IMG/VR virus record: IMGVR_UViG_3300020045_006193
Span: 1-60,483 of that record
Strand: one strand, 5' to 3'
Source of the DNA: a virus
Taxonomy: Duplodnaviria; Caudoviricetes
DNA length: 60,483 nt
The notes below the pieces were generated by a model, which was not told the origin of the DNA, ran no database searches, and was given only the letters and a program-made list of their open reading frames with translations. Both the position numbers and the translations under genes were made by a program. Shown one piece after another: positions 122-39,744 of this stretch (position 1 is its first letter; every line of letters starts with the position of its first letter).

Positions 122-382
122 CTCTTGTAACTCTACCGCTACCAATCCAGCTTCTTCGCATTTTTCCAGCAATTTATTGAATTTGTTGTAATGTATGTTT
201 AAAACATTCGCCCATTTTGCTAAAGAATAAGATAGTGAGCATTTGTCTTCTCCATCCATAGATTCAGCTATAACCTCTAATAGCTTAAAATAAAATCCAT
301 ACCCCTCTAACCCTGCCATTTGCTCAAGATAAGCTATTTTTTCATCGTTTCTAGCAACTGAATAATGCTTGAACCACTTCAT
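1..382 (-). CDS. Replication initiator, N-terminal part (continues at 60362 across the junction; about 325 aa in total)
   Basis: ATG at 382 overlaps the stop of 379..783 (ATGA). Reads MKWFKHYSVARNDEKIAYLEQMAGLEGYGFYFKLLEVIAE...(GKGI)5...IPNLLKYRDNH, in frame with 59767..60381. DUF4373-like N-terminus; lies upstream of loader and DnaB. Confidence 0.8.
   Translation of the reverse strand, partial: MKWFKHYSVARNDEKIAYLEQMAGLEGYGFYFKLLEVIAESMDGEDKCSLSYSLAKWANVLNIHYNKFNKLLEKCEEAGLVAVELQEGKGIGKGIGKGIGKGIGKGIGKAEVRIQVSIPNLLKYRDN
55..121. repeat. 12-bp tandem repeat CCTTACCTATAC x5.6 inside the initiator gene; probable origin iterons
   Basis: Units at 55, 67, 79, 91, 103 and a partial one at 115; encodes GKGI repeats. 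Lambdoid origins lie within the initiator gene. Confidence 0.75.
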
Positions 383-783
383 TTTTTGCACCTTCTAACA
401 GTCGCTTTTCTGACTAACTCGCCATCAATAACCCCTCCATCTTGCCTATACCCAATAAGACCTGCGTCAATAGCAATTAACGAAAAGAAGTACCCGTAAG
501 TAACTAATGGAATCTTACTTTGTAGCGAAAATGCTTTATAAGCACACTCAACCGTGTGGTCGAATCCTATTGTTCCAAAGGCTAATGATCCAATTTCATT
601 TCTCGCTTTTTCATTAAAAACATATCCAGTATTAATAAAAAATAAGTCTGAAATAGCATTCACGGCTTCATCTACATCTAAATCTTCTATTTCTTGAATC
701 CCTAATAACTCATCAATATCACAAGTTATTTCTTTAGGCTCTTCGTTTTGCAAATCAAAGTAAAGCCAACTTAAATCAACCAT
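379..783 (-). CDS. Hypothetical protein, first gene of the replication operon
   Basis: 134-aa ORF, AGGA RBS, ATGA coupling to the initiator. Confidence 0.7.
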   Translation of the reverse strand: MVDLSWLYFDLQNEEPKEITCDIDELLGIQEIEDLDVDEAVNAISDLFFINTGYVFNEKARNEIGSLAFGTIGFDHTVECAYKAFSLQSKIPLVTYGYFFSLIAIDAGLIGYRQDGGVIDGELVRKATVRRCKK

Positions 784-6420: not shown

Positions 6421-8442
6421 ATGTCAGACAATATAAATCAAGCTCACCGCCTAACAATAGGCGCGAGTCAAGTGTCAAAAATCATGTCGTATCTACAACA
6501 CGACAACCTACCAAAGGGCGCGGTCTCCCTGATTTCCACCATGTGTCGCGGCACAGACGAAGACCTTGAAAACGCTTACGAACTAAATACCCCTGCGGTG
6601 CTTTGGGGTCGTGACCACGAAGTTGAAGCTGTTGATTTAACCGCTATAACTTTTCAAGCCGAAATGCAATTTTTTGGTGACGCTCAAAAACGATTCTACG
6701 CGGGTGCTGAATACGCCGACTTCATCAGCGCGTTGCCCGACGCTATCATGCAATTTAACGACGGCTCGATTATTACTGTAGAGGTCAAATGCCTCGACAC
6801 TCATAATCACGACTACATTATTGCCGCCGTTGGTGATAGCGCGGAGGCATTAAAACGCGAGGATTGGGCTAAATACTGCCAAGTTCACACGCAAAACATT
6901 TGCGCTGAGTCGTACTATAAGAAGCCCGTATCATCGATTATTGTGTTTTATGATCCACGGTCAACTGCAATAAAACTGCATTACGTTATCGTGATTGATG
7001 CCGATGACCCGGCAACCATTGACCACGAGTTCAGAGAAAAACTCCAGCAACGGGCAAAACTGGCGCGTAACCTTTACGACTCCATTAAAGCCGAACCTGA
7101 CCGCGCCGCATTGATTTATGACGGTGTAATGCCAGAAACGAAGCTTGTTCAAGCATCAACAGAAATTGTAACCGCTGAATTGCTTGAATTAGGTCTTGAT
7201 GCAGTTGTTTCTACAGTTGCTGAAAGTTTTGGAATTAAAGTGGTAAACGGCGCGTTGGTCGGCGGGGAGGTGTTCGACTGCCAGACATTAGAAGGACGCG
7301 ACCTAGCCAAGGCTTTTAAAAACAAGGTCACAAAAATACGCACATCGGCTGAAAAACTTGTTGACCCATTTTATCGTGAGCGATACGAAAAATATCAATC
7401 GGCAATGAAAATAAAGCAGGGTATCACGAAAGGCATTAATGCTATCCGTGACCACGGTCTGCAAACTTTTAACGAATGGGAAGCTGAACAAAAGCGCATT
7501 CAAGATGAAATTTTAGCCGCCGAAGCTGAAAAAAAGCGATTAGCAGATGAAAAAGCTGAACAGGTACGTCAGGCTATTTTAGCGAAAATCGAGACTTTTA
7601 CGGTATCACCGCAAGATGTATCGAGCCTTGAGTTAATTGCGGCAAAGCGGTTGCAGGTTGAAAGCGTAGTTATTGATGTGATGTTTGGGGAGTTTGAACA
7701 GCAAGCCAGTTACGACAAAGAAAGCGCATTAGCTTCACTGGAAGCTGCCGAAGCTGGTTTAAAACAAGCCATCGCCGAAGCAGAAAAACAGGCGCGTTCA
7801 GATGCGTTTAACGTATTTAAAGCCAAGTGTGCGGCGTTAAGTGACCCGACACACAGCTTTGAGTATTTGCAATCACAGTTAGCCAAGCTTACAGTGGCTA
7901 CTCTGCCAGATGATGAGTATCTTGTTGCCGCTAGTGACCTTAGAATTGATGTTATTGCCATGCTTAACGGCTCATTAATTCCAGCGGCAAAACAAAGGGC
8001 CATTGATTTAGCCGAAAAGTTGAAAGCCGAAGCCGCAGAATTAGCGGCAAAGGAAGTCAAAGATTCTGCGGTTTTAGTTGTCAATGACTCGCCTGTGTTT
8101 ATTGATGCAAGTGTTAATTTAACGCCTGAAAAAATAGAGGAAGTTAAAGTTTTTCTTGCTTCTTGTGATGATGAAACCCCTCTTGTGCCAGCGATTAATC
8201 TGCCCGATGCACCTGAAATTATCGAAAGAATAGAGCGCGAAAACTCGATAGAGCATGACATTATCGCAATGTACGCCGCGCTAAATCCAGTCCTTCACGC
8301 AAAAGTTGTCGAAGCCGCTGGCAAAGTCATGGAGTTTCAAAATACCCCGCAAAACAGCCGTTCGAGTTTTTTGCATAACTTGTTTGATGCTGACAAGCAG
8401 GGCAAGGCACTAAGGGCCGCGTTTTGCTTAATAATTAAATAA
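6421..8442 (+). CDS. YqaJ/lambda-type exonuclease fused to a long coiled-coil region
   Basis: IGAS, WG..HE, SALPDA, VEVKC and YCQVHTQ motifs in the first ~200 aa; Ala/Glu/Lys-rich helical remainder. Confidence 0.8.
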   Translation: MSDNINQAHRLTIGASQVSKIMSYLQHDNLPKGAVSLISTMCRGTDEDLENAYELNTPAVLWGRDHEVEAVDLTAITFQAEMQFFGDAQKRFYAGAEYADFISALPDAIMQFNDGSIITVEVKCLDTHNHDYIIAAVGDSAEALKREDWAKYCQVHTQNICAESYYKKPVSSIIVFYDPRSTAIKLHYVIVIDADDPATIDHEFREKLQQRAKLARNLYDSIKAEPDRAALIYDGVMPETKLVQASTEIVTAELLELGLDAVVSTVAESFGIKVVNGALVGGEVFDCQTLEGRDLAKAFKNKVTKIRTSAEKLVDPFYRERYEKYQSAMKIKQGITKGINAIRDHGLQTFNEWEAEQKRIQDEILAAEAEKKRLADEKAEQVRQAILAKIETFTVSPQDVSSLELIAAKRLQVESVVIDVMFGEFEQQASYDKESALASLEAAEAGLKQAIAEAEKQARSDAFNVFKAKCAALSDPTHSFEYLQSQLAKLTVATLPDDEYLVAASDLRIDVIAMLNGSLIPAAKQRAIDLAEKLKAEAAELAAKEVKDSAVLVVNDSPVFIDASVNLTPEKIEEVKVFLASCDDETPLVPAINLPDAPEIIERIERENSIEHDIIAMYAALNPVLHAKVVEAAGKVMEFQNTPQNSRSSFLHNLFDADKQGKALRAAFCLIIK

Positions 8443-8484
8443 TCAATCAGCCCCGTAGACGCGGGACGTAACTTGGAAAATATC

Positions 8485-9354
8485 ATGAACGACAAAACAA
8501 AAGCAGTGCTACACATTTCCGCGCCAGATAATCAAGAGTTCTCTGAAAAAGGCGTGATAGTGAATCAATCAAATGCGTTAAACGGCGTGTGTGTCGAGAT
8601 TTATCTGCCCACAAAGCCTATTGAATTAGTCAGTACGTTACAGGACTTGATAGATCAAGCCGAAGCCGATAAAAAGGCTTATCCGTTGACTTGGACTTAT
8701 GGTTGGGAGATGACGACATTATATGATACAAGCCGAAGATGGATTAGAGTCGGCGAGGTAAAAGAAGATGGTCGCCAATACAGACGCAAGCCACACGCCG
8801 ACATTATCATGCAAGTCGAGCAGGATAAAATCGATTATCCTGAGTTTTGGTGGGAGTTGGTGCAATATAAGTCTATTTTCGGCGGTGGATTTCAGGCTTT
8901 TTCTGACAAATCTTTTTATAAGAAATTGGAAGAACATAGTGGATACATTGTCCGCCAACACCCACACCGCGAGTCAATAATCGAGTGGCACAAGTGCAGT
9001 GAGGCGGATAAAAAGCGGTGGGAAGAAAAACAAGACTCAGTAAAGCTGTCATGGGGAAACTCACCAAACCCAAAATGGTTGGAGTACAGAGAGTACCGTC
9101 TACGCACCCGCACCTGCAAAGTAACTCTGCAAGACGGCACGGTACTGGAATACCCAGAGCCAGTGCGCGGTGATTTAGAGGTTGGTCGCGTGTATTTTTC
9201 GGTTTGCATTAGAGTAGCCCGTCATATTTATCAGCCAAATAATGCGCGATATTTAATTGACTTGAGAGATGAAGGTGCTTTACATCCAACAGAAGAAAAC
9301 GCATTGCATCACCTAGCCGCCCTGCAAGCGGTTAACTCGCAGGTGTCGGTATAA
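8485..9354 (+). CDS. Hypothetical phage protein with repeated Trp-rich PH...YR(R/L) modules
   Basis: YRRKPHADII, VRQHPHRESII and EYRLR segments; start set to ATG 8485. Confidence 0.7.
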   Translation: MNDKTKAVLHISAPDNQEFSEKGVIVNQSNALNGVCVEIYLPTKPIELVSTLQDLIDQAEADKKAYPLTWTYGWEMTTLYDTSRRWIRVGEVKEDGRQYRRKPHADIIMQVEQDKIDYPEFWWELVQYKSIFGGGFQAFSDKSFYKKLEEHSGYIVRQHPHRESIIEWHKCSEADKKRWEEKQDSVKLSWGNSPNPKWLEYREYRLRTRTCKVTLQDGTVLEYPEPVRGDLEVGRVYFSVCIRVARHIYQPNNARYLIDLRDEGALHPTEENALHHLAALQAVNSQVSV

Positions 9355-9431
9355 CCGACATCAGATACCCTGCCCTTTACTTAATAAAGGGCGGGTATAA
9401 CCCGCCCCGTTCGCGGGGCAATGGAGGATTT

Positions 9432-9962
9432 ATGAGCGAAATAGAAGAATTGGTAAAAAACGCGATTAATGAGTTTGGTGATAGGGCGTATGAAAGGTTT
9501 TTTGTTTCAAATAAAGGGCAAAAAGATGTCTTGCACTCAAACAGTGATATTGATTATTGGATTCAGCATTGTCATATTAAGTTAAAGCCAATGTCAGAAC
9601 TATTCGCCCACGGATGTGACGTGTACGGATTTGAGCAAGAAATTAAGATGTGGGAATGGCAAGACGATGATAATGTGTGGAATGATTTTTCACCCGAACT
9701 TTGTGCTTATGATGAAATTATTTATGGCATGACCGAATATGTCCGCCGACGCAAAACCTCAGTCGCCCGTGCATTTTGCTTGGAGGACGCTAAGGCGGGT
9801 GATGTGGTTGAGTTAAACTTAGGCGATAGAAAAGTGCTTAAATTTATTGGTGAAAGCAGGGTATACGCTGGATTTATTGCGGTCATGGATGAACAAGGTT
9901 TGCATCATGTTAATCCTGAGTCGCTGTGTATGAAATACCCAAAAAAGCTGGTGCAATCATGA
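9432..9962 (+). CDS. Hypothetical protein
   Basis: GGAGG RBS; 176 aa. Confidence 0.75.
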   Translation: MSEIEELVKNAINEFGDRAYERFFVSNKGQKDVLHSNSDIDYWIQHCHIKLKPMSELFAHGCDVYGFEQEIKMWEWQDDDNVWNDFSPELCAYDEIIYGMTEYVRRRKTSVARAFCLEDAKAGDVVELNLGDRKVLKFIGESRVYAGFIAVMDEQGLHHVNPESLCMKYPKKLVQS

Positions 9963-10357
9963 GTAGACCTTTTGCGATTGGTGATTTAGTAACGCTTCCA
10001 GAAATCGGGAATAATCATATTGGGTTTGTTTGGTTTGTTACGATAAATTCAGTAATTATTATGTTTGACAAGCATACGGGGAGAAAAGCCACTTTTGATT
10101 TAAATGGATTTCATAAGGATGAAGATTATCAGCATTATCCGGCAATAAAGACTATCCGCACACAAAGAAAAGGATGCAAAGAGGCGAGGGATATTGTGGC
10201 GAGATGCTTACTAAAAGTCCGATGGCTGAGGAACACAAAAAAATTCACGCTAAAAAGCGAATCCATTGGTAGGCATGAAACTATTCAAAGCGCGTTGATT
10301 TTTGGACACGAGATTTATCGTTATCAAAAATCAATATTAGGGGGTCACAATGCCTAA
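9959..10357 (+). CDS. Hypothetical protein
   Basis: ATGA overlap with the upstream stop (start revised to 9959). Confidence 0.65.
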   Translation: MSRPFAIGDLVTLPEIGNNHIGFVWFVTINSVIIMFDKHTGRKATFDLNGFHKDEDYQHYPAIKTIRTQRKGCKEARDIVARCLLKVRWLRNTKKFTLKSESIGRHETIQSALIFGHEIYRYQKSILGGHNA

Positions 10358-10700
10358 AGTAAAGATAGAAGACCTAACCAACGAACAGCTTGACCATTTT
10401 TGTGCGATTGCGCAAGGGTGGTTTGCGTCAGAAGATGGTAGATGGTGGGATAAAAAAGAATCTACTGAGAGATATGCAATTAGATTTTATCATCCAACAA
10501 CTAACGCCGCCCAGTGCATGGAAATCATGGAGCGCGAGAAGTGGGCTGTTATGTTTGATAGAAATATAGATTTATGGGTATCGACAAGATCAGAACTTTA
10601 TAAATTTGACGAGGCAACAGGCGTAACCGCAAAACAAGCAATAATCCGCTGTTTTATTAAGTCAAAATTGGGGGATGAGGTGGGTTGTGAAAGCATCTAA
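10350..10700 (+). CDS. NinX/DUF2591-like protein
   Basis: LT.EQLD...A.AQG, YHPTTN.AQC..I.ERE and AI.RCF..SKLGDEV pattern. Confidence 0.7.
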   Translation: MPKVKIEDLTNEQLDHFCAIAQGWFASEDGRWWDKKESTERYAIRFYHPTTNAAQCMEIMEREKWAVMFDRNIDLWVSTRSELYKFDEATGVTAKQAIIRCFIKSKLGDEVGCESI

Positions 10701-10736: not shown

Positions 10737-10763
10737 AAAGGCCGCTAGTGATAGCGGCTTTTT
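10737..10763. terminator. Bidirectional terminator between the early operon and the tail fibre
   Basis: AAAGGCCGCTA-GTGA-TAGCGGCTTTTT. Confidence 0.8.
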
Positions 10764-10774
10764 ATTGCCTAAAA

Positions 10775-13102
10775 TTATGCTGCCTCATAAAAACCTTCTA
10801 AAACTATCCTGTCTGAGTCTTTCCATGTGTGTGGCGATGTTGCCGTTACTGGGGTTGATATAATCAAAGAACCTAAGACTTGTGTATGCGCTATGCCTAT
10901 GGTTGCGGTAGACACAAACCTAAACAATCCTTGGTAGTTAGAGATCCCGTTGTTTACAATCATACCAAAACCCAATGGATGAGATATATCTGCGTAATCA
11001 ATGCTAGTAACTGGGTTCGTAAAATAAGGACTCGTTCCCATGCTCGACGTTGAACCAAGGACTATTCGCACTCTGAAAAATACGGTTTTACCGATTTGCT
11101 TATACTTTGCGTCAACCGTACCGTTCCCAAGTGTAAAATTAGTAAAAGTCGGTGTCCAGCTAACCCATGCCGTATCAGTTATCCCTGTATCGATTGGCAG
11201 ACTTACCGCATTAGTTAGATTAACTGCGCTTGGAGTTCCCAATGCCGGCGTGACTAGCGTGCAATTAGTATCAAAAACATTTAATCCAGTGCCAGTTTTG
11301 TTGGTCAGTGCATCCGATAGGTTAGCAGATGAGAAACCGCCTGTAGTTAATGTTGTCGTGCCTGTCGCATTGCCAGCTATTGCACCCGTTAAATTTGGTA
11401 TATTGGTAGTATTGCCTGCCGTCAATCCGCTTGCTGTGCCTGATAAATTGCCGCCAAGTGTCAAGTTCCCTCCGCTTGTGACATTTCCTGTCAGCGTTAA
11501 TCCGTTTACCGTTCCGTTACCCTGTACATAAGTCACGTTGCTATTTGCCGCAGTCTGATTTAATACCGATAACTGAAAGTCACTAATATAATTTTTGTCG
11601 GTTGACGCTGAAATATTAGCCGTGGTTAAGGTGATATTTGACGATAAATTAACACCGTTAATAGTTGTTGATTTATCGGCTTTTGCGGTCAATGCAGCGG
11701 CAGTCAGGTTTGATATTGGAAGCTCTAATGATGTTACGTCACTAACATTACCAAGCCCAACAAAAGATTTATCATGCGTAACTTGCGAGTGATTGTAAGC
11801 GATTAACCCTCTATCACCTCGATATGCTGTTGCCGATGTTTCGCCTAATACTAAACTGCCATTCAGTTGTCCGTAAGTTGAACCTGTCCATCGGTAAAGT
11901 AATTCAGTATCTAAAGTGACATAAATCTTACTAACTTCACCCGTAACAGGCAAAGCCGCAAAATTCGCTACCTCAACAACATCATCAACGTAGCTTGGCA
12001 ATTGGCTTGCTGGCACTGCTCCACCCACCAATTCAGCTACGCCATTTGATGCGCCTTTTTGACTTGCATCAAGCTTTAAATCTAGCGCGGATTGAGTGGC
12101 ATTTGAAACAGGTAATTCGAGCGGGGTAACGTCGGTTACATTGGGCAATCCAATTTGAGTTTTAGTGACATTGTGCGGATTATTAGTTAATGACGTATGG
12201 TTGTATGCGGCTATCCCTAACGCGCCATCAAAAGCTGTCCCAGTTGTATTACCTGCCGTTAAATTAGACGTGCCTTTAGATGCCAGTCCACTTGTTAAGT
12301 TGGTAACATTGCCTTGCAAGGTCGTAATGTTCGATGTTGCGCCGCTAAGGATGCCATTAGTCGTATTGGCATCACTTGATAATATAGTCGTCAGGTTTTG
12401 CAACCCGGTAACATTGCCCTGTATTACACTAATATTAGAGACTGCATCCGCACCTAAATCACCCGCAAAAGCAGTAATATTAGTCGAGCCGATTGTTAAA
12501 TTAGACGTGCCTTTAGCAGAAAATTCGTTGAACTTATCGGCTGTTAATTGACCATCTTGCGTAGCATTGGCATATTGCATAGCAAGAGACAGGCTGTTGT
12601 TTGTAACCGTTCCAGTAAAGCCGCCGCCGTCCGTAAACCCAGCAATACCACTAACATTGCCGCCTGTGATGACCATATCACCGCTACCCAATATCGATAC
12701 ACCGTTGATAGTCTTAATATTGGTAGCTGAAACCAGCGTGGCTTGTTTGCCACTTAAAGCTGTTTGCAGGGTCGAAATATCGCTTGTGGCATTGCCAATC
12801 TCGACGAACTTAGTTGATGTTAGTTGTCCGTTTTGAGTAGCATTAGCGTTCTGTAGCATCAGTGATAGGTTATTGTTGGTGACATTTCCAGTGAAACCGC
12901 CGCCATCGGTAAAATCAACTATACCAGTGAAATTGCTGCTAATGTTGGCAACCTCATTTTGTAGTGCTGTAATCTCAGTTGCCGCAGTCTGCAATCCGTT
13001 CTTTATTGCTACTCGACTTCCTCTTTCATCGGATGCTGAATAGCGAGTCCCGACAACTGGGGTAGTGACGTTTATTGCTGAAACATTGATATTTGAGGTC
13101 AT
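10775..13102 (-). CDS. Tail fibre / receptor-binding protein, very rich in N-X-S/T
   Basis: G/T/S/N-rich; fibre motifs NPHNVTKTQIGL, VPASQLPSYVDDV, LGETSATAYRGDRG; C-terminal SWTPT...KYKQIGKTV domain; internal duplications FTDGGGFTG x2 and KGTSNLT x2. Confidence 0.85.
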   Translation of the reverse strand: MTSNINVSAINVTTPVVGTRYSASDERGSRVAIKNGLQTAATEITALQNEVANISSNFTGIVDFTDGGGFTGNVTNNNLSLMLQNANATQNGQLTSTKFVEIGNATSDISTLQTALSGKQATLVSATNIKTINGVSILGSGDMVITGGNVSGIAGFTDGGGFTGTVTNNSLSLAMQYANATQDGQLTADKFNEFSAKGTSNLTIGSTNITAFAGDLGADAVSNISVIQGNVTGLQNLTTILSSDANTTNGILSGATSNITTLQGNVTNLTSGLASKGTSNLTAGNTTGTAFDGALGIAAYNHTSLTNNPHNVTKTQIGLPNVTDVTPLELPVSNATQSALDLKLDASQKGASNGVAELVGGAVPASQLPSYVDDVVEVANFAALPVTGEVSKIYVTLDTELLYRWTGSTYGQLNGSLVLGETSATAYRGDRGLIAYNHSQVTHDKSFVGLGNVSDVTSLELPISNLTAAALTAKADKSTTINGVNLSSNITLTTANISASTDKNYISDFQLSVLNQTAANSNVTYVQGNGTVNGLTLTGNVTSGGNLTLGGNLSGTASGLTAGNTTNIPNLTGAIAGNATGTTTLTTGGFSSANLSDALTNKTGTGLNVFDTNCTLVTPALGTPSAVNLTNAVSLPIDTGITDTAWVSWTPTFTNFTLGNGTVDAKYKQIGKTVFFRVRIVLGSTSSMGTSPYFTNPVTSIDYADISHPLGFGMIVNNGISNYQGLFRFVSTATIGIAHTQVLGSLIISTPVTATSPHTWKDSDRIVLEGFYEAA

Positions 13103-13162
13103 GACTGTGCGCTGGAGTAATATTGTAATTATTCCAGATTATACCCTTTTTCTTTAGGCAAT

Positions 13163-13192
13163 AAAAAACCCCGTTCTTGCGTTCGGGGTTTT
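13163..13192 (-). terminator. Intrinsic terminator upstream of the tail fibre gene
   Basis: Minus strand AAAACCCCG...CGGGGTTTTTT, followed by a TATAAT at 13143-13138. Confidence 0.7.
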
Positions 13193-15121: not shown

Positions 15122-18100
15122 CTATCTCAAGCTATTAAAAACACTATCATTCAACACCTTCATTCTCTGGGCAATGCGATCATCAATGCCTCTAATCACC
15201 GAAGAATCAGCATTTTTAGCCATCAACTCTTTACGCCGCTTAGTCAGATTATTAACTATTTTTTCAAAGCCTTTCGCCTTATTAACCATCTTTGCATCTG
15301 GGTTTTCAGATAGGTATTCGGCAATCTTAACCCTGCCGCTCGGCTCTTTCTTCAAGCCATTAATCTCATTTTCGTGTTCATTCAATCGTCTCAGATTATC
15401 ATAATACGCGCCACGCTCAACAGCATTGCCCGAAGTTTCACCGTACAGTTTACCCAGCAATGGTACTTTACGCACTGGCAATTCTTCATTATTAAATGGT
15501 GTTGCTGCTGCCTGTGCTGCATTGGCTAACTCGCGGTATGTTCCTCCGCCGAATTGTCCGAACACATAATCGAGCTGGTCAGGCGTTGGACTCCATGCGC
15601 CTTGCTTATAATCCGTGCCGCCTGTTAGCTTATTGATTGCTTCGGCTGCCAGTTTAGACGCACCTGTAGCCGTGTCTTTTTTACGGGTAAATCCTGCCGT
15701 TGGATTCAGTGAACTAAAATCTTCCTTGTAAATAGTTTTACCAGTCCAATCTTTATTGCGCCACAATGCAACAATAGGGTCAGCTACCGTAGGCGTGATA
15801 GTTTGCCCGATGTCTTTACCGCCCAATGGGTTAAAGTTATCGATAACCGAAGTTAGCAACTCCCCGAAGCGTTGAGTTTTAGAAACCTTGTTACTGCCGA
15901 ATATCATTTCAACAGACTTTCGCCCGATGTTTGGTATCACGTTAAAGCCTAAAGGCATAGGGATTGCAAAGTATTTTCCTTTGTTGGCAAAATCAGGAAT
16001 GATTAAATTACGTTCACGGATAAACTCAGGTATTTTATCCCAATCATCCGCGCCCATTGCTGTAATACCAAGTAATGCCGCCGCCGCGCCTAATGCTACG
16101 CCACTGGCAAGTAACTTTTTACCCGCTGGACTGCGTAGGGTTTCAAACATACGGGTATTGCCTTGCACCGAGGCATTAAAAAACGCATAAAACGCACCTA
16201 TTTTAGTGGTTGCCGCGCCTTTGCGGTTGAAGTTCACCGTGATGTTTTTTGCAATACTGGCTGATTTATCAATTGATAGACCATTGTCACGCGCCACTTT
16301 GTAAGCGGCTAAACGCACAGAATTTTCCATTGCAGTATTAAAGTCAGATAGCCATTTAAAGGTCGCTGATAAAGCTAATCTAGCTTGACTGTCGCCGTGC
16401 TTGTCAAATTCCCGCTGAATAGCTTTGTGTCGTTGGTTCACATCGGCAAACAAATCACGAAAACCAGTTGTACCACCTGCTAATGAATATTCGCGGTATA
16501 AATCTGCCATTGCCCCAGTTGTGGCATTGCCGCGTTCTGCGCCATAAATCGCCTTTAAAGCGGGTGCGATAGCTTTCATTACTGAGGCTTGCTTACCTGC
16601 TAACGGTGTGCTGGCTAAGTTAATTAATCCACCTTGAGCATCACGCATTAAGTTCATGATACCGAAGACAAGGTTATATTGCGTATTCACCGAAGCAAAC
16701 CAGCGCGTACCTTTGGCAATTATGTTTTCCACCATATCTAAATCTGCGCCGTCCATGTTTTTTAGTGCCAATGCTAGACGCGCCGCGCTTTCGTTGCGTG
16801 GATTAAACTCAATGCCAATGTCTTTGCCGTTGTGGCGTGTCATCACATAATTGTCTTTGTTGCGATAAGATGGGTCAATATGGGTTTCAACGAAACCATT
16901 AACCAGTGAATCAACTGTAGGCACTTTACCGACTACTGCAAAATCAGGATCAGGATGTGCGGTTAAGAAGTTTATCAAGGCAGTATCAACACGCGCCTTT
17001 TCGCCACGAGTTAAAGCTTGTTCCCGTGCCATAGCGATATGAGACAGAATGTTAGTTACTTCTGAATTTGAACCAGTAGCATTTTTAAAGGCTGACCCCT
17101 GAACGCTAAAACCACTACCTACAGGGTGGCTGTTTTGTTCGGGGTGCGCCTCATCACGGTGCAAAGGAACATAGTTTTCCCAGGCCGCATTTAAGTCGTC
17201 AATGGTTTGCTGTGTTTCAAGTCCGTATTCGACTTGTAAATCCAGTGTCTTTTGATTGATTGCGTAAACCTTATTGGCTAACGCTTGCATCTTGGCTTTA
17301 TCGGTAGGCGATAGCGCGTCAATAACAGCCTGTGCATCAGCATCACTAATTCCAGACAGTGACAAGCGTTCTTCCTCAGTACCTTTAAACGGTCTGGCGC
17401 GTTTCCACCGTGCCAATTCTTTGTCATCACCATTAGCAGTGTGTAAGGCGATAGCGTCATCAATCATTTGCTGATTAGGGTTACGCTCTGCCATGACCGC
17501 GTTACGGCTTGGTGCGTGTTTAGCGTGTAAGAACTTTTGAAAGCTATCCATACTTAGTCCAGCATCATGCAATCCTTTCAGGATAGGATTAAGCTCATCT
17601 TTCAGGAAGTCATCAACCCGTTGTGATAAACGCTTATGGTAAAGTTCTTCTGCCATACGCGGGTCTTGGTCTTCGGTGATAATACCGCCATTTTTAACCA
17701 CGTCCTGCATACGGCGTTTTAAGTCGATGTATTTGTCTTGCAGCAGGTAGATGGCGTTGTCTTTGGCTTTCTGGCTAAAGGTAGATTTAATGCTATCGGT
17801 AGCCGCACTAGCCATTGAATACCGAATATCAGGCGATTGCGTAGGTTCTTCATTGCTGGTCAACTTAGCTTGATTTGATTCAAAGACAATGGCGTATTTA
17901 GCATCTTTCAGGTAAATAGCATCAAACCCTTGCGCCTTGAGCTTATCGGCATAAGCCTTGGCTTCTTCAATGCTGTCAAACTGCGGCAATTGATCAACAG
18001 TCATGTCCTTAACTTTCTGCGCTGACAAATAGAACTCTCGCACATCAGAACCGTAATTCGTAGCAGTTTCGCGTTGTGGAGAGAAAAAGAATCCTAACCC

Positions 18101-21100
18101 ACTGGTTGAGTGGTTCGGTGTGCCAGTGCCTATTTTGGCATGACTGAACTCGTAAAATGTGCTGTTTGAACCGTGATAAAACTTAACGGGTTGACCATTT
18201 TTGTCTGAGAACTTAGAACCATTCCACCAGTCAAAGAATGCGCGCGACCATCGCTTAGGGGCTACTGAGAATTTACTGGCTAGTAAGTTAGGGCTATCTG
18301 CGAAGTCTGGGTCGAATGCAGCGTTTATGCTGCGGATTTGGTTGGAGTTAAACACGCCTATTGTTTCTATCTGGGTTCTATCGTATTGACTGGTCGGCTC
18401 TTTTAGGGTGAAACTATCAAAACCATGACCTTTTAAATAATAAAGGAAGTAAGCTGTACCGTAATCCTCATATGTCTCCCAATGCGCCGCTTTAACCTCT
18501 GCAATTACTAATTCCCACGGATACCCTTGATCCCAAAGAAACTGATTGCCCTCGTCATAGAAGCCATACACTGCTTTTTCAGCATCTTCTTTAGTAAATT
18601 GGCGACCTTTATTTAAAAAGACTTCATAAACATCTCGTGTATCCCCCTCTTTATACTTACTCTCTTTTATCTCATTAAAATCCTCATAAGCAAATTTCTC
18701 GGCTAAAGCTTTTGATTCAGTAAAGAAAAATATATTTTTAAATCTTGATTTAGAAAACTCATTAAATCCAGCGTTTGTTGTGCCGTGGTAATACGGTGTG
18801 TCAACATCAAACCCCATAGCCTTAGCTCTAGCCATCCTAGCCTCTTTCGACATATCCAATCCTTTAGCAACAGCGCGTAACCATTCCTCAGATTCGCCTA
18901 TATCGTTGCCTTTGTAGCCTTGTTGCTGGGCAAGCTTTATGCTGTCGCCACTTCTACCAACAGAATCAAACAACAAATCATTCGGTGCTTGCTTCAACGC
19001 ACTAATAGCCATACCGACTAAATCACTTTCAGTCATAGCGGTAACTTTTCTAAACCACTCAGTACGCTGTACGGGTGGCAATGCTTTACCGATAGCGCGT
19101 AGTTTGTTTCTGAACCATGTTAGGAATTTTTGAACTAGGGTAAGGCGTGGATGGTTCTCAACCAGATAGGCTAACACTTCCTCGGTAACGTGTTCAGCCT
19201 TGGTATTAGCTTCTTTCGCCCGTGCCAGTGCTGTGCGTATTGCTTTGCTGGAATTGGACGCAATCATGCGATCAACTTCTGACAGGATAGCCTTGAAGTT
19301 TTTATCATCTTTTCCAAGCTGTAGAGCGTGTACGCCTAACTCATGCGCAGCTAACCCTAACAGGTCTTTGTTTTTGTCGATGTTGTCTGCGGCAAAGTAG
19401 GTGGTGTCGTTTGCTGGATTGTAGAAGGCTTGGACTTTGCCGTTTTTGCTGTATTGCGCATCAATATCAGACTCAAAGAAATAAGGCTTGTTTACATCAA
19501 AAGGTGTAAACTCAACTGCATCATCAACGTATATTTCTGCACCAGCCGCCGCGCTTCCCAATAAGTCTTTTTTGATTCTAACTTTTAGTATTACTGGGTT
19601 TTTTATTCTACCTGTGACGTGTTTCAAAGTGGAGTTTGCATTAGGCTCAAAAAAAGAACCCGCTTGAAATTTCCCTGATTTTAATATCTTGTTAGCATTG
19701 GCTTTACTGGTTGCGTGGTAAACAATAGCATTGCCGTCTTTATCTATTTCATACAGTGCAGTTTCTTCGTTTTCATCATCTGAGTAAATAGCTTGTTGGG
19801 ATGGTTTTTTCTTTTTTATTGCTGCCAACAATTCAGGCAAGTCATCACTATCTGCATTTATTCCTACCCAGTCTCTTTCGATACCAATCTCATCAGTATT
19901 AAACCATTTTTCACCTTTTCCAGTATCTACAAGTATTCGGCTTTTATCGTCATTATGGTCAATTATCACTGGCTTGAAGCTAAACAACTCCCCACCACTA
20001 ATAATCCTATCCGCTTCCTCGCTACTAACCACCTTAACCTTACCCGTAGCCATCAACAACTTAGTCCAGCCTTGACCGAACTGTTTATCAAGCTGTGAGG
20101 TGAATGCTTGGGTGAATGAGGTTAGGGTGTGGGCGTTGGTTGGTTTATCGCCACGCGATTCAAACACACCTGTTCTATCTTGTAACTCAGGGTAATCAGC
20201 AAGGACATTATCGGGAACGGATAACCCCTCTTTCAGTGCATCATTAACTAATGCCCTATGCAGAAAGTCAACTGAAAAATTGGCATGGTCAAAATCCTTG
20301 AATGTTGCTTTTCCACCTTGGTCAGGATTTGAAGTAGGCTTATGCCCGTCTTTTTTTCCTCTTGCATAGTCAATAGCGTGTTCTATTTCATGACGAAGTA
20401 TTGATGGTGTGGATAAATCAACGCCACCGCCTTTTACATCCCAGTCTTTTAGCTGCTGTTCTGAAAACTTTGAGAACAGCCATATTGTTTTTTTTGTAAC
20501 AACTTCGCCAGTCTTGGTATTTACTCCAGTTTCTACGTCAAACCATGACCTTGTTGGGCGTGGAGTCGGTACTATTTCAACATTAACATCGCTTAATTCA
20601 CTAGGATAAAGCCCTTGGTAGTATTCAAATATCTTTTTCGGGTCATTGCTTCCAGCCTTTTCAATAATCCTTTTATCAAGGTCTGGATTTGTTGCAACCC
20701 TATGTAGCACGTCAGGGTATAACTCTCTAAACTCAGATTGAGTTAGCAAGTGTGGCTGGGTGTTGGTTGAGGGGGTGGATTTTGAGGGCTTGATTTCAGT
20801 ATCAGGTTCTTTATTCTCATCCTTAGCCTGTAACAACCGATTAACCTCTTTGTGTTTATCGGCAACCTCTTTTAATTTATCAGCATCCTTGAAAGGCTTG
20901 ATTTGTTCTTTCAGCTTTGGCAATTCTGATTGAGCGGCTTTAATCGATTTCTCAAATCTAGGCACAAGGTCAATAATAGAATCAACCTTGTTTTCTATGC
21001 GCTGTGACAACCCAAGCGGTGATTGCTGTTGCCCGCTTTCTTCTTCTGCATTAGGTGTAATGTAGTCAGTATGAAAACTTAAATCATAATAATCTGCTTT

Positions 21101-24100
21101 AGTTTTTACCGTAAGTTTTAAGTATGGATCACTAAATCCTGTTTTTTTCTCAACGATAATATTAAATCCAGCATAAGAAATAGTTTTCTCCTCGCCTAAC
21201 GCCATCTTCTGCCCGATGCTGATAATTTCGGCACCTGCTTTTTTCTTGTCGGAAAACAGCTTGCCATTTACCGTTATGGAAAACTTCTCAGGTGCGTTAC
21301 TCGCTTGTTCAGCATCCGCTTTTAAGTCAGAAAGAATATCATTGGATTCATCTAAAAACTTTTCATTCTTGGCAATGTCGCGCTCAATATCAAACTGCTG
21401 TCTTTTATGTGACTTCTCCAGTGATTGCAGTTTTTTAACGTCAGCACGGAGTTTTATTTCTTCCAAAATATAAGGGTTGCCACTCGCTGCCGCTTTCATT
21501 TCAGCCGCGTTACTGGCTTCCCCTGCCACGTCTTCAACTTCGCGTGAGGTTATATCGCCCTTGCGTAACTGCTCAATGAAGTTAGCTTTACCCTCAATGG
21601 TTTGCCACATCCGACTATCAAGGGTTTTGCTGGTGGCATAGCGTAGGATTTGCACCTCAAAGTTGGGGTTCTCGTTAAAGAACTCATTACCTTGTCGAAT
21701 AATTCTACCCTCGCGCTGTTCCAAGTCAGAAGGTCGCCACGGCGCATCTATGTGATGCAAGGCGACAAGTTTATTCTGTACATTCATACCCGCGCCCATC
21801 TTGCTGGTCGATCCAAACAAAATACGCACCGAACCACTACGAACCCTACCGAACAGCTTACCCTTTTTAATATCGGTGTTGGCATCATGGATAAAGGCGA
21901 TTTCATTCAATGGAATGCCTAGCGCAACCAATTTAGACCGCATATCATCGTACATACTGAACTTTTGATTAAGTGCTGATATATCATCGGGTGATAGCTT
22001 GTCAAGCGCATCCTGTGCGGTTTCATCACCTTGTTCAGCTTTTACTACCAACTCATCATAAGCCGCTTTTTCTTTGGCAACTGCGCCCGATGGTATCGAC
22101 ATATCCAAAAATACCAACTGAGTACCATTAACTGAATGGGTATCTTTATAGATTTCATTAATACGGCGTACCGCATCATTAGTTTTTCCCTCTGGATTAT
22201 CGCCATAAGTCGGGTTGATTAAGCGCATATCTAACGCCGCTTTTCTGGCATCAGACATAATGGCAAGCATATTGTCATCGCCTTTCTTTAGCTTGCCCTT
22301 GGGCAAGTTTTCAGAGCGTTCAATTAACTTATTAACATAGCTTTCTTGGTCATCGCTTATTTCAACCACCACGTTATTAGGCTTGCCGCCTGTCACCTTA
22401 GGCACTGGTAAGGCAATACCCATTTTGGCAATGTCTTCACGGGTGATGGTATCGGAAAATTGCCGATACATCGCCATGAGTTCAGGCATATTGTAGAACT
22501 TGGCAAGGCGGGTATTCTGTTTGTACTTGCCCGATGGCGATAATTCCCAGTCTGTGACTATTTCGGCAAACTGACGAACCCACGCATCAAATACATTCAC
22601 TCCCTCTTTTTTAAGTGCATCACCCGACATATAGCGCATCATGGTGAACATTTCGGCAATGGCATTGCTGATTGGTGTGCCTGTTAAGAACACCAGATTA
22701 TTTCCCCCTGTTTTATCAAGCAGGAACTGTGTTTTGATAAATAGGTCAAAGGCTTTCTTTGACCCGACTGGATTGCCTAAACCTGCTACGCGCTCTAAGC
22801 CTGTGGTGTATTGCAGGTTTTTAAACTCGTGCGCTTCGTCAACTACTAGCGCATCAATGCCCAGCTGCTCAAAATCAAGGTTATCATCACGCTCCATATC
22901 AATAAGAGCCTGTAATTTAGACTCCATTGCATCCTTGGCTTTTTCGGCTTGCTTAACGGTGCGTGACTTTTTGCCCTCGGTAGTGCGTGACATTTCATTG
23001 ATAGCCGCTTGCACCTCGTTTATTTGCCAGCGGATAAAATCCTGTTCAAACTCTGCGGGGTTTTCAATCTTGGTAAGCTGTGAATGCCCGATAACAATCG
23101 CGTCATAATCGCCCGATGCAATTCGGGCCATCAATAACTTTCTACGTTTCGCGCTAAAGTCGTTTTTAGTTGGCACAAGGATATTGGCATTAGGGTACAA
23201 CTGCATGAAGTCACTGCCCCATTGGTCAACCAAATGGTTAGGCACAACAACCAGCGGCTTATTAGCTTTGCCAGTACGCTTTAATTCCATCACAGCGGCT
23301 ATAGCGGTTGCTGTTTTGCCAGTGCCTACCGTGTGGTCAAATAGAACACTTCCACCCTGTAGAACGCGCCACACTGCATTAAATTGATGTGGTCTTAATT
23401 TGAAAATGCTATCACTGACTTTGCCGACAAACTTTAAATGACTGCCATCATAGTTACGGCTTGCGTACACGTTAAAGGTATCGTTGTAAATCTTGGCTAA
23501 TCGATCACGTCTTACTGAATCGCTCCATATCCAATCATCAAATTCTGTTTTAATTTCACCCAGCTTTTCATTTGCCGCGTTAGTTTCATCGGTATTGAGT
23601 ACGCGAGACTCCGAACCATCAGGGTTCTTGTGCGTGTCGTAAATACTCGCTTGCCCATTGTTAAAGGCTTGGGTTAGCAGATAGGATAAATCAGCGCGTG
23701 ACGTTCCCCATCCAACCGCTTGGCTACCAGCAACCGAACCCGTGTTAATCGTCCACTTCGAGTTATAACTTGAATAAACGGCTACCGCATTGCTACCACC
23801 TGTGATATGGGCAATAAAAGCGTCTGAAACATCTTTAGGCAACCATGCCGCGCCCGACTTAACGGTGATGTCGATAGCTTGAACATCTTTAGGAATAACG
23901 GGTAACAGCGCGTCTATGTTTTCCTGTTTAGTGGCTTTCGCCAACTTCTCTTTAACATTGCCGCTTAGGTATTCTTCTTTTGATACCCAGCCTTTATCAG
24001 CATCTTCATAAATCAAGCCATGCAGGTCTTTGGTAATTTCATCAACGGATAAGCCTGTTAGCTCCTGCATATACTTAATATCAACGCCGCCTTTTTCGGA

Positions 24101-27100
24101 CATTGAGATAGTCAGTGCATCCTTGGAATTATCGGCTCTGGTCGGTGATGAATAAGGTTGTTGTGTACGCTTGGTGAAGATGTCAGCTTTTACCGCGCTT
24201 TCTTTTCGTGCGGGTTCGCCTGTACTTTTAGAGACTGCCACCGATACACCAGCGTCATAATTCTTTTCAAGCGATTGTAGGAACGGGGCATTAACATCAT
24301 TTTCAAACAGTCTGATATTCGCCGCATTATTCATGAAGCCGATTTTCTTAACTGCTGAATCATAGACCGCGTTCAGGATTGCCCGTGCCGATGCTATTTC
24401 AGAATTGCCAATATCGGTTTTAAGCTGTAAATCGCGTAGTTTTATCGCCACATCAGACACCTCTACCATTTGCAGTATGCGATTCTTTTCGGTAAGTGTA
24501 AGCGGTACTTCTTCGCCTTTTGAGTTTATGCGGGCTTTTACTTCTTCAATATATCCGTAGGCATCCTTAAAAAATAATCTATCTTTTATTTTAATATAGG
24601 TATTTTTGCGAGCATTCGCTACATCCTGTCTAGTTTTATCAAACTCATCCTCAGTAAAGCCACTGGAGTTAAGCGCGTCCTCATAGTTCTGGTTTGGCAC
24701 ATATTGATAAAGAGGATTGCCGTCACCATCAAACGCTATAGGCTGTTGGGCAGTAGGCATAATGTCTTTAGGTAGCCGCGCAATTGCTTCAGCTAACAGC
24801 TTGTTAGTGTCCTGTCCGTCTTTAGCGACTAACGCGGGTTCATCACCACGGAACATTGAATCAAACGCGCCCCATTCGCCTAACAGGTTTTCAGGATGAT
24901 CAATAAAATACTGGTTAATCGGTACTCCGTTAATCTCACCAATGTCATGCCATGTATCAGGGTTTGATGTTTCATTGGGCATTAACTTCTGTAAGAAAAT
25001 AATATCAGTCGTTACCGTGGTGTTAGCATTTTTGCTAAACGCATTATTAGGCAAACGTATCGCACCGATTAACTTAGCCTTACGACCGAATATCTCACGC
25101 GCATTAGCGTTATTGGAATCCATTAAGCTATTGGAAACCACCATAGCCAATACACCGCCATCCTTTAGAGCATCTAAACTTTTGGCAAAAAAGAAGTTGT
25201 GAATGGATAGGTGATTAAGGTCTTTGTTTTCTTTGTCGAATAGCTTTTGCTGACCGAATGGTGGATTGCCTATCGCTAAATCAAAGCTACCTTTTCTAAT
25301 GCGGTAATCTTGAAAGCCTGAGTTTGATATTCTGGCTTTAGGGTAAAGTGCCGAAGCAATAGCACTGGTGATTTTGTCTAGTTCGATACCGACTAACTTC
25401 GCGTAAGGCTTTAACTGGGCTGGCATAAAGCCGAAGAAGTTACCCACGCCCACCGATGGCTCTAATACCTGACCACCGTTAAAGCCGAATTGCTCAACAG
25501 CTTTCCAGATACCCGTGATAATTTCTTTTGAGGTGTAGTGAGCATCTTGTGTGCTACGTCTAGCAGAATCGTATTCTTCGGGTGTTAGCGTGGATTTTAA
25601 CTCCTCAGCTTCACGTTCCCAGCCTTTGGCAATCGTACCATCTGGTTTAGCAAAGGCTTGAGGAATACCACCCCAGCCTACATACTTGGACAAGTCTTTT
25701 TTGTCATCCAGCGTTAAGGCTTCACCATTGGCTAATTTTCTAATCGCACCAATGGCTTTAATGTTGTTCTTGAACTTGGTTTTTTGCCCACCTTCGGCAA
25801 TAGGTGAATCAATGGTGAAGTTATCATTTAGAACGAGGTCATCACGTCCTCTCTGATTATCTCCATTGCCTCTAGTTCCTGATACCCTGCTTTCGTCAGT
25901 TGACCCAGTTGCATCATTGCCGATTCCGTTTTCTCTTTTAGAAGTGGTTGTAGTTGGTTTGTTTGTTCCAGTTGTCGGTACGTCTTGGGGTTTAACGCCT
26001 TTAGCCGTTTCGCTATCTGGGTTTGCATTGATCCGTAGGTTATCATTGGGTTCACCTTGTTGTTTTGCCAGTCTAATTACTTCACTTGCTAGGTAGTTAA
26101 AGATACCGTCATCATCTATGTATTCATCTTCGTAAAGTTCGTTAAAGGCTCTATTATCTTCATAATACTTCCTGATACTCGCCTTAGCTTGCGCGTACAT
26201 CCTTTCGTCTAGGATAGCCCTATCTTTGAGATAAAAAATATCCGCCCCGTTAGTTTTTAGTGAACTATCCATTGCTTGCTTTGCAAAATCCTTTTGCTCT
26301 GGAGTAATATTAAATTTATCTAATCCTGATTCTTTAACGCTTTCGACAACAGGCTTTGCGGTTGGTTCATTTTCCAACTTAGCAATTTCGCCCTTTAAAT
26401 AATCAATTCTATCGGCTGTTCTGGCATTTTTTACCCTGCCTTGATTTGCGTATTCATTCTCTAAAACCGATAAATCAGCCTTTAATTCTTCAATAGTTGG
26501 CGGCTTTTCTTCTTGCTCAACTCTAACAGCTTTTTCAACAAAGCTACCAGTTGCAGAATCCATGCTTGCGTGTTGCGATACCAGTTTTCCATCACGATAC
26601 ACAGAATAAAGGTTATCGTTCACCTTGGTTATCTTGTAATCACTGCCATTCATCGGTGACTTTGCAGTTAATCCACCGCGAAGTGCTTTGTTAAACTCAA
26701 AAAGCTGTTGAGGCGTAACGGAGTTTTCAACTGTTGGTTCATTACCCCTTTCAGCAACCCATCTATCAATGGCTATTTTTGCCGCGTCTTTTCCAAAAAT
26801 ACTGCCTACATATAATTTAACATCCTTTGCTGCACCATTTATATAATCAAACGCGGCAAGAATAGTGCCTCCTTTCATAGATGAAACAGTGTAATTATTA
26901 GTTTTAGTGCCATTGGTGTTTTTACTAATCACATAGCTTTTTGCCGCTCTTTCTTCACTTGTTTCAGCGGGTGATTTATCAAACCCAACCGTACCCACAA
27001 CCAACTTATCACCAAGAGCTTGACCGATTGAACTGTTTTTAATGCCGTCTATGACTTGTTGCTGTCCAGACTGTTTGCCCTGCGCATCCATCAACAGATT

Positions 27101-34517: not shown

Positions 34518-34594
34518 TGGCGTTCCCAGTCGGACTTGAACCGAACATCAGCGATTTGAAAGACCGCTATCCTAAACCTTTAGACGATGAGAAC
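34518..34594 (-). tRNA. tRNA-Glu(TTC)
   Basis: Full cloverleaf; GCGGT-CTTTCAA-ATCGC; GGTTCAAGTCC T arm; CCA end. Confidence 0.9.
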
Positions 34595-34603
34595 ATTTAA
34601 AAC

Positions 34604-34677
34604 TGGCAGTTCCAAGACGATTTGAACGTCTGATTTCACAGTCAAAGTGTGATGTGTTGCCGCTACACTATGGAACA
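34604..34677 (-). tRNA. tRNA-Gln(TTG)
   Basis: TCACA-CTTTGAC-TGTGA; T arm AGACG-TTCAAAT-CGTCT; unpaired 1:72; CCA end. Confidence 0.88.
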
Positions 34678-34684
34678 TTAATTT

Positions 34685-34759
34685 TGGTAGCGAAGGCTGG
34701 AGTTGAACCAGCTACATTAGGCTTATGAGACCCACAATCTACCGTTGATATACTTCGCT
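34685..34759 (-). tRNA. tRNA with CAT anticodon (Met or Ile2)
   Basis: AGCGAAG/CTTCGCT-A-CCA; TGGGT-CTCATAA-GCCTA; GCTGG-TTCAACT-CCAGC. Confidence 0.85.
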
Positions 34760-34771
34760 AAATTATTATTA

Positions 34772-34844
34772 TCAGGGTGGAGAGGCTCGAACTCCCGACC
34801 GAACACTTCCAAGGTGTTCATTCTACCAACTGAAATACACTCTG
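34772..34844 (-). tRNA. tRNA-Pro(TGG), CCA not encoded
   Basis: CAGAGTG/CACCCTG-A; AACAC-CTTGGAA-GTGTT; GGGAG-TTCGAGC-CTCTC. Confidence 0.85.
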
Positions 34845-34863
34845 ATAATAATAACTAAAAAAC

Positions 34864-34933
34864 ACTGTGCAGTAGGATTCGAACCTACAACTTTGGTTAT
34901 GAATCAATGTTCAGCCATTTGAACTATACACAG
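34864..34933 (-). tRNA. Degenerate tRNA-like gene (CAT in a poorly paired anticodon arm)
   Basis: Acceptor CTGTGTA/TGCACAG, D arm GTTC/GAAC and T arm GTAGG-TTCGAAT-CCTAC are intact; anticodon stem short and mismatched; no CCA. Confidence 0.6.
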
Positions 34934-34982
34934 TTTACTGCATCAAACACACCCAATCAGCAGTCTTTCCCGCTGTCTAAAC

Positions 34983-39567: not shown

Positions 39568-39744
39568 ATGAGTGCAATTTATTTATTATTAGCTTTGTCA
39601 ATCGCTGGATTCCTAGTCCTGTCTTTTAACTTTCGTACTGCGCTGGTTTTGCATCACTTTCGCATCAAAGAAATGCACATATCGCCGCTGTTCTTTGCGT
39701 GGATTTTGTGCCTGTCCTACTTGATCGCGTATGTGCAATCATGA
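39568..39744 (+). CDS. Small two-TM membrane protein
   Basis: GGAGAG RBS; two hydrophobic stretches; ATGA-coupled to the pilin gene. Confidence 0.7.
   Translation: MSAIYLLLALSIAGFLVLSFNFRTALVLHHFRIKEMHISPLFFAWILCLSYLIAYVQS

Follow-up and report, generated by a model that had tools for sequence, protein, structure and literature searches.

What has filled the tail fibre of a bacteriophage with N-X-S/T tripeptides (sequons, X being any residue except proline), the acceptor sites of N-linked glycosylation? The question is raised by a gene at 10775–13102 (minus strand) of the virus record IMGVR_UViG_3300020045_006193, the complete genome of an uncultured phage (complete by the rating of the record) on one contig of 60,483 bp, all of which we analysed and refer to as the window. 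The gene encodes a protein of 775 amino acids (aa) with 48 sequons, and a preliminary description of the locus had proposed that the shaft of this fibre evolved as a substrate of an N-glycosyltransferase (NGT) of the host. NGT-type N-glycosylation in the cytoplasm has been described for a small number of bacterial adhesins, and some mycobacteriophages have glycosylated virions; a literature search of limited coverage turned up no publication describing a phage fibre with N-linked sugars. If the proposal is true, the fibre would be the first example of N-glycosylation in a bacteriophage virion, protein glycosylation by the host would matter to how phages assemble and how stable they are, as well as to host range and immune recognition, and the fibre would provide a natural, densely glycosylatable scaffold.

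Sequon excess in the fibre shaft and in a second protein

Exactly 48 of the 75 asparagines of the fibre are found in N-[not P]-[ST] (35 NxT and 13 NxS), and serine plus threonine account for 24.6% of its residues, which matches the hand count of about 48 of 75 and the estimate of roughly a quarter in the preliminary description. The sequons are also as varied as described there, with NHT, NHS, NQT, NKT, NCT and NAT all present. Shuffling the whole protein 10,000 times gave 18.0 sequons on average (standard deviation 3.5) and never more than 31, so that the observed count corresponds to a z of 8.6. A shuffle test had been suggested as a check, and the enrichment survived composition-, locality- and pattern-matched null models alike (z 7.6–8.7). 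Indeed, shuffling within blocks of 15, 30 or 60 aa gave z 8.0–8.2, freezing the hydrophobic positions gave z 8.7 (z 8.2 inside 60-aa blocks), and after removal of the second copies of two duplicated modules 43 of 68 asparagines were still in sequons (z 7.6). The signal is directional and specific to asparagine, with N at position i and S/T at i+2: the reverse and offset motifs [ST]-x-N, N-[ST] and N-xx-[ST] occur 20, 5 and 19 times, and after D, Q, G, A, S, T, L, V, K or E a serine or threonine follows at +2 in just 12–29% of cases. When the middle residue is hydrophobic, 37 of 46 asparagines (80%) have S/T at +2, compared with 20–45% for D, S, T, G, Q or A in the first position, and a general in–out pattern of the chain therefore does not account for the signal. 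We regard the statistical observation as solid.

The sequons follow the modular layout of the protein. All 48 are carried by the shaft (aa 1–660; 11123–13102, minus strand), at 2–6 per 50-aa stretch except in a globular insert, and the shaft consists of 10.8% N, 15.6% T and only 9.3% D+E+K+R. The globular module (aa 346–416; 11855–12067, minus strand) is sequon-free, including the 50-aa window 351–400, and is widely conserved, being the best-conserved stretch among phage and prophage homologues. The C-terminal tip (aa 661–775; 10778–11122, minus strand), a putative receptor-binding domain, is likewise without sequons. This had been emphasized in the preliminary description, and the last sequon does end the array at aa 660, but the absence carries no statistical weight, as the tip holds only 4 asparagines. 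Phage G002, although different elsewhere, has a tip of approximately 70% identity, and Atlas models of residues 622–775 and 586–775 matched viral fibre-tip clusters with template-modelling (TM) scores of 0.83 and 0.71 for the matched rows; such Atlas matches are low-score leads between predicted models only.

Homology to known modules, together with a modular shaft and a distinct, exchangeable C-terminal tip, identifies the protein as a phage tail fibre. Residues 260–445 match PHROG families of minor tail and tail collar fibre proteins, and in tblastn searches the same module turned up in many phages, under genes that carry a tail fibre or minor tail protein annotation. The modules are widespread, with 22,206 representatives at E values up to 0.001, and ordinary fibres have in common with the query the globular domain and flanking motifs of the A-Y-x-H-S and G-N-V-D types. 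Pfam returned no family match for the fibre, Gp5_C included, and the PDB held no solved-structure relative detectable by sequence or profile.

To place the fibre among the proteins of its own phage, the shuffle test was applied to each of the 45 window open reading frames (ORFs) of at least 100 aa. The two proteins previously named as unenriched controls were confirmed as such, namely a T-rich tail ORF at 38092–39405 (6 of 35 asparagines in sequons, z -0.3) and the capsid protein at 45940–46854 (3 of 14, z 0.9), and a giant ORF of the same genome gave z -0.3. A single other clear case emerged: a 217-aa ORF at 43907–44560 (minus strand), in which 14 of 23 asparagines are in sequons (z 4.9). It lies between the adaptor gene and a 426-aa gene at 42598–43878 that matches the PHROGs head closure Hc3 and internal virion protein. 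The 217-aa ORF matched neither Pfam nor PHROG, had no homologue among 5.8 billion protein clusters within the length range searched, and aligned with the fibre only marginally, as an effect of composition. It is absent from the close relative G001, where its slot is taken by an unrelated ORF of approximately 128 aa (G001 37610–38001, minus strand). Two further structural proteins showed marginal excesses, the portal (z 2.4) and the SU10-type adaptor (44564–45214, minus strand; Pfam PF24175), with 5 sequons against 1.8 expected (z 2.7). The adaptor does not count as an independent case, because its 91%-identical copy in G001 also has 5 sequons.

Sequon richness among related fibres

Among the best 120 matches of a word-indexed search, 23 proteins (the query and 22 metagenomic homologues) exceeded z 4; these were essentially the closest matches, and the rest had a median of approximately 1. 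Only 2 of 132 further representatives reached z>4, and none of 80 fibre-homologous ORFs in prokaryote genomes and metagenome-assembled genomes did so (maximum 3.3), these ORFs being taxonomically scattered. In 844 viral and 610 metagenomic-locus ORFs fetched with fibre queries, the fibres of L001 and L002 were the only clear cases, and two ORFs were marginal (L050 with z 3.6, and L057 with z 4.4 on 4 sequons in 181 aa). The metagenomic part of that scan, comprising 80 loci, yielded no truly sequon-rich protein, and the sole ORF above z 3.5 in it has one sequon. Judged by these comparisons, sequon richness goes with the lineage, not with the fold.

At least five further phage records, G001–G005, also contain a fibre with z above 3.5; they measure 24.9–94.9 kb apart from one 12.7-kb fragment and have between 1 and 30 ORFs in common with the window phage or with one another. 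In each of them the enriched protein was the fibre, and the other ORFs had a median z near 0. That phages with so few genes in common carry rich fibres fits a trait tied to the host.

We then asked how the individual sites differ between rich and ordinary fibres, using phmmer alignments of the retrieved homologues to the query, with rich defined as z>4.5 (n=21) and ordinary as z<2.5 (n=209). At the positions of the 48 query sequons, the rich group had a sequon in 596 of 942 aligned cells, compared with 431 of 4610 in the ordinary group, and wherever 10 or more ordinary cells were aligned (38 sites) the sequon share among ordinary homologues stayed below 30%. Identity to the query was 67.8% in sequon columns versus 58.0% in the others for rich homologues, and 34.3% versus 46.4% for ordinary ones. 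Sequon columns are thus conserved above average in one group and below average in the other, and the closer kinship of the rich homologues is not the sole cause. The alignment bears out the suspected shift of common fibre motifs toward N-X-S/T, with GNVD appearing as NV[TS], STAT as SNAT and DHS as NHS. A strong consensus in both groups was found at 158 columns, 19 of which differ between the groups; 5 of the 19 changes create a sequon (D323T, T334N, D437N, S613N and T628N), and three of these five are not charge changes.

The sequence grammar of the sites was examined in a pool of 24 rich proteins (19,139 aa), in which 1049 of 1954 asparagines (53.7%) are in sequons, compared with 23.5% in the ordinary group. 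N-P-[ST] is nearly missing from the rich pool (3 cases versus 27.4 expected) and close to expectation in the ordinary group (104 versus 116.5), N-P followed by another residue is not avoided in the rich pool (32 cases), and Pro occurs once at +3. The ratio of T to S at +2 is 3.0 in the rich pool against 1.69 in its composition, and 1.35 against 1.25 in the ordinary group. The rich fibres thus have what would be expected of NGT substrates, that is, an excess of N-X-S/T over composition, exclusion of Pro at X and a preference for Thr. PMC10466321 gives GGNWTT as the best, optimised acceptor of ApNGT, with a kcat/Km of 5.84 for NWT versus 0.32 for NWS.

Adhesins beside N-glycosyltransferase genes and the search for an enzyme

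The same shuffle test was applied to adhesins encoded beside HMW1C/NGT genes. EtpA, encoded beside EtpC on plasmid p948 of enterotoxigenic Escherichia coli (ETEC) and reportedly glycosylated through EtpC, has 96 of 221 asparagines in sequons against 55.8 expected (z 6.6), with a T:S ratio of 73:23 and no N-P-[ST]. EtpB, EtpC and CfaC gave z values of -0.5, -1.2 and 0.8. In PMC3012730, EtpC is named as a relative of HMW1C. A total of 285 plasmid records matched EtpA, and six of 40 among the matches listed were examined closely. Four EtpA homologues without an EtpC-like gene within 15 kb were unenriched (z 0.2, -1.1, -1.8 and -1.3), and a Salmonella homologue with a 64%-identical EtpC-like neighbour had z 3.8. 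Taking the TpsA adhesins together, enrichment was seen at 2 of 3 loci with an NGT-like gene and at 0 of 4 without one. These controls indicate that the test singles out proteins whose genes neighbour an NGT gene, and that a fibrous beta-helical fold alone gave no signal within the adhesin family. They also suggest that a database-wide search for new phage and bacterial NGT substrates could be made with a plain shuffle test.

Two side observations come from the same loci. On the Salmonella serovar India plasmid NZ_CP022016.1, a gene annotated as a cobalt ABC transporter permease (19427–21451 of locus L229) is 64% identical to EtpC over residues 18–626 and adjoins a TpsA adhesin; by this similarity it is probably a mis-named HMW1C-like N-glycosyltransferase. 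Furthermore, an EtpC-like gene was found in 9 of 400 evenly drawn genomes of one class, and in one of these genomes (G356) an ORF truncated where the contig stops (6683–9589 of locus L260), approximately 2.6 kb downstream of the EtpC-like gene, has 43 of 99 asparagines in sequons (z 5.5), making it a candidate new NGT substrate. The remaining eight EtpC-like loci had no enriched neighbouring ORF within the stretch fetched.

No comparable enzyme was found with the fibre. Pfam detected no glycosyltransferase in 42 window ORFs of at least 100 aa or in the giant ORF, so the earlier statement that none is visible in this genome holds as far as Pfam reaches. The profiles PF13844, PF00535 and PF00534 matched neither the window nor five related phage records, while the control genomes responded, and neither this phage nor the related phages with rich fibres yielded a GT41, GT2 or GT1 gene. 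Searches with EtpC by tblastn and phmmer matched nothing in the window, G001 or G002. A 626-aa ORF at 32374–34254, of NGT-like length, was considered as a hidden NGT and rejected: it has no PDB match, and its Atlas model is poor (predicted local distance difference test score 0.49) and has no glycosyltransferase-like neighbour. Four other ORFs of no known function (562, 346, 293 and 348 aa) had no PDB match either.

The genes that converge on the fibre gene from the plus strand (8473–10700) have no match in Pfam, the PDB or cultured phages. Homologues of the 293-aa gene at 8473–9354 and of 9926–10357 are found in G001, G002, G003 and G006, those of 9432–9962 in G001, G003 and G006, and those of 10350–10700 in G001, G002 and G003, phages that otherwise have few genes in common. 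In five phages the 8473–9354 gene adjoins the fibre gene or lies close to it, and genes of the set are immediate neighbours of the fibre gene in G000 and G003, three of them in the latter. In cultured phages, neither this gene nor 6421–8442 had a useful match, and the fibre had no homologue there beyond its generic module.

The host could not be named by any of the routes taken, namely matches of the terminase, of the fibre (in prokaryote and metagenome scans), of a pseudopilin and of other genes. A word search of sequencing runs returned one run, labelled landfill metagenome, with a 0.06 share of the words, which is no evidence of habitat. The terminase resembles those of Pseudomonadota phages and is at most 40% identical to the terminases of Roseobacter and Rhizobium phages. 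The pseudopilin gene (39699–40322, plus strand), of the FimT/GspH family and with an N-terminal methylation motif, stands on the opposite strand within the structural module in the manner of a moron; one 80%-identical copy is present on another metagenomic contig, and its named relatives, approximately 30–56% identical over parts, are from Pseudomonadota.

The genome is bounded by an exact direct terminal repeat of 121 bp (1–121 and 60363–60483; located by script), and the phage is podovirus-like, with an adaptor and portal of SU10 type. Directly 3' of the fibre stop codon lies a terminator-like hairpin (10741–10758, minus strand) with a 7-pair stem, 5 of the pairs being G-C, followed by a T-rich tail. 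Upstream, a hairpin with a T-run and then TATAAT can be read by eye at 13138–13190 (minus strand); a promoter scan made no call for this TATAAT and found no -35 hexamer. Flanked in this way, the fibre gene looks like its own transcription unit and a self-contained cassette. Elsewhere in the window, the giant ORF (5750 aa; 15122–32374, minus strand) encodes a polyvalent protein with an Eco57I-type methylase, a ResIII/SNF2 helicase, an ART-PolyVal ADP-ribosyltransferase and LPD38; conserved parts of this protein recur in G001 and G003. tRNA genes for Glu, Gln, Met, Pro and Met form a cluster of five at 34518–34934 (minus strand). The tail protein at 38092–39405 (minus strand), 82% identical in G001, contains a sugar-binding F5/8 type C (discoidin) domain at aa 47–127 and may be a second receptor-binding protein.

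Competing explanations and known systems

Given the site-by-site conversion within one lineage, the second, unrelated protein of the same phage and the enrichment of proteins encoded beside NGT genes, the most economical reading is that the tripeptide was selected as an acceptor for a cytoplasmic NGT of the host. The shaft, and probably also the 217-aa ORFan, would present a dense array of acceptor sites to a soluble host enzyme of the HMW1C/NGT (GT41) kind, which would place a hexose on the Asn of N-X-S/T before or during fibre assembly. The outcome would be an uncharged, sugar-coated shaft, while no sugar would cover the receptor-binding tip or the conserved globular module. We infer the enzyme reading the sites, its host origin, its GT41-like nature and the role of the glycan, be it solubility or folding in place of charge, shielding or adhesion. 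Modification of the asparagines by an enzyme of whatever kind seems to us slightly favoured on balance. That evolution shaped the shaft to serve a cytoplasmic NGT of the host as its substrate is a narrower claim, which we hold tentatively and rate at somewhat under an even chance. The same tentative standing applies to the broader picture, in which phages with a common host would carry fibres bearing dozens of N-linked hexoses from its NGT, the sugar coat having replaced the charges of the shaft.

Several findings weigh against this proposal. No NGT could be tied to this phage, EtpC-like genes are sparse in the class sampled, and the 9 EtpC-positive genomes contained no homologue of this fibre. 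The fibre of Mannheimia phage PHL101, the enzyme content of whose host strain was not checked, is ordinary (11 of 75 asparagines in sequons, z 0.5); Mannheimia is listed among the genera with HMW1C-like proteins in PMC3012730. A short Caballeronia homologue of EtpA beside a partial EtpC-like gene gave z 0.0. The rich fibres are kin, so that protein counts overstate the number of independent events, and the independent evidence is the number of sites. Moreover, the ordinary motif G-N-V-D-N-T-S holds an N-T-S sequon of its own, which is lost in the rich group (N324D).

The remaining difficulties all bear on a serious rival, namely that the motif is structural or physicochemical and stays unmodified. 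According to this explanation, the shaft has been depleted of charge and an Asn caps a turn (Asx-turn) ahead of a hydrophobic-Thr strand, the sequon being a by-product of a G/S/A-N-hydrophobic-T unit; we consider it a possibility of real weight, albeit a rather doubtful one. X is hydrophobic in 36 of the 48 query sites, mostly L, V or I (2.4- to 2.7-fold enriched in the rich pool), and position -1 is dominated by G, A or S (G enriched 2.5-fold, with K, E and R nearly absent), just as a turn-plus-strand motif would give. Pro exclusion and Thr preference are also expected of a motif at the start of a beta strand, and the grammar as a whole is therefore compatible with glycosylation but no proof of it. 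The column occupied by Asn holds mostly D, N, S or T in ordinary homologues, all of which can cap a turn (Asx and ST turns), the +2 Thr is already conserved there at many sites (for example columns 311, 334, 601, 613 and 628), and the 6–7-residue spacing of sequons, for example at aa 520–580, is beta-helix-like. In addition, charged residues fall from 16.9% in ordinary to 9.0% in rich fibres, with N and T together up by 7.6 points, and several other consensus changes replace K by L, T or A. A general drive toward an uncharged surface is thus real and under way, and could be the primary cause.

What speaks for selection of the acceptor over such a motif is, first, that the fold works without the sequons in all 209 ordinary homologues and that changes of S to N, T to N and V/T to N are not driven by charge. 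Second, the general in–out pattern is insufficient, and a non-homologous ORFan of the same phage is enriched too. Third, the enrichment of TpsA adhesins appears only near an NGT-like gene. A structural parallel is offered by the triple beta-helices of the T4 gp5 C-terminus and VgrG, which resemble the fibre in repeating small residue-Asn-x-Thr units within trimeric, phage-type spikes. G-N-x-T is present in 4 of 6 repeat units of the gp5 beta-helix and in 3 of 4 of those of a VgrG, with no known glycosylation, a parallel that favours the structural explanation. Over the whole proteins, however, z is 1.6 for T4 gp5 and 2.1 for VgrG, and 1.9 or less for all of T4 gp5, gp12, wac and gp10, far under that of the fibre. 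Their sequons are moreover confined to one short repeat block, where D is mixed with N and D with T, whereas those of the fibre fill every shaft module.

Alternatively, the acceptor sites might be read by a phage-encoded enzyme beyond the recognition of profiles, such as the product of the 293-aa gene at 8473–9354. Its homologues and those of 9432–9962 and 9926–10357 accompany the fibre in phages that are otherwise dissimilar, and these genes are without a match in Pfam, the PDB or cultured phages. On the other hand, no glycosyltransferase family was matched in any of the phage sequences searched, EtpC matched nothing in the window, G001 or G002, the candidate genes are on the early strand with the replication genes, and G006 possesses them even though its fibre homologue stays below z 3; we consider this explanation improbable. 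Tailed virions assemble in the cytoplasm, whereas the membrane oligosaccharyltransferases of bacteria (PglB type) and archaea (AglB type) work outside the cytoplasmic membrane. Even though such membrane enzymes likewise use N-X-S/T and PMC10384203 describes glycosylated proteins in some archaeal viruses, this mismatch of site, the lack of enrichment for the acidic -2 residue of the PglB sequon (D 0.81-fold and E 0.31-fold of composition; D at -2 in 2 of 48 query sites) and the Pseudomonadota affinities of the pseudopilin and the terminase make glycosylation of the fibre by one of them most improbable.

How, then, does the proposed NGT substrate compare with known systems? Ordinary fibres built from the same modules neither exclude Pro nor prefer Thr, and their share of charged residues is twice that of the rich ones. 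Mycobacteriophages offer the precedent of sugars on phage structural proteins, which in the present case are predicted only; in work by Freeman and colleagues from 2023, capsids and tail tubes of these phages are reportedly glycosylated by phage-encoded glycosyltransferases. PMC11256854 describes a phage with two putative glycosyltransferases. The window phage differs in having no such gene and in that its signal is an N-linked sequon on the fibre. HMW1 of Haemophilus influenzae and EtpA of ETEC are secreted bacterial adhesins that are often encoded beside the gene for their enzyme, whereas the fibre is a phage virion protein that is known from sequence alone and has no enzyme gene in sight. 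In HMW1, according to PMC3012730, hexoses are added in the cytoplasm at 31 asparagines, all but one of which are in sequons. Both adhesins are, like the fibre, long, fibrous, rich in Asn, Thr and Gly, low in charge and full of N-X-S/T, and the density of sequons is similar, with 48 in the 775 aa of the fibre and 96 in the 1539 aa of EtpA.

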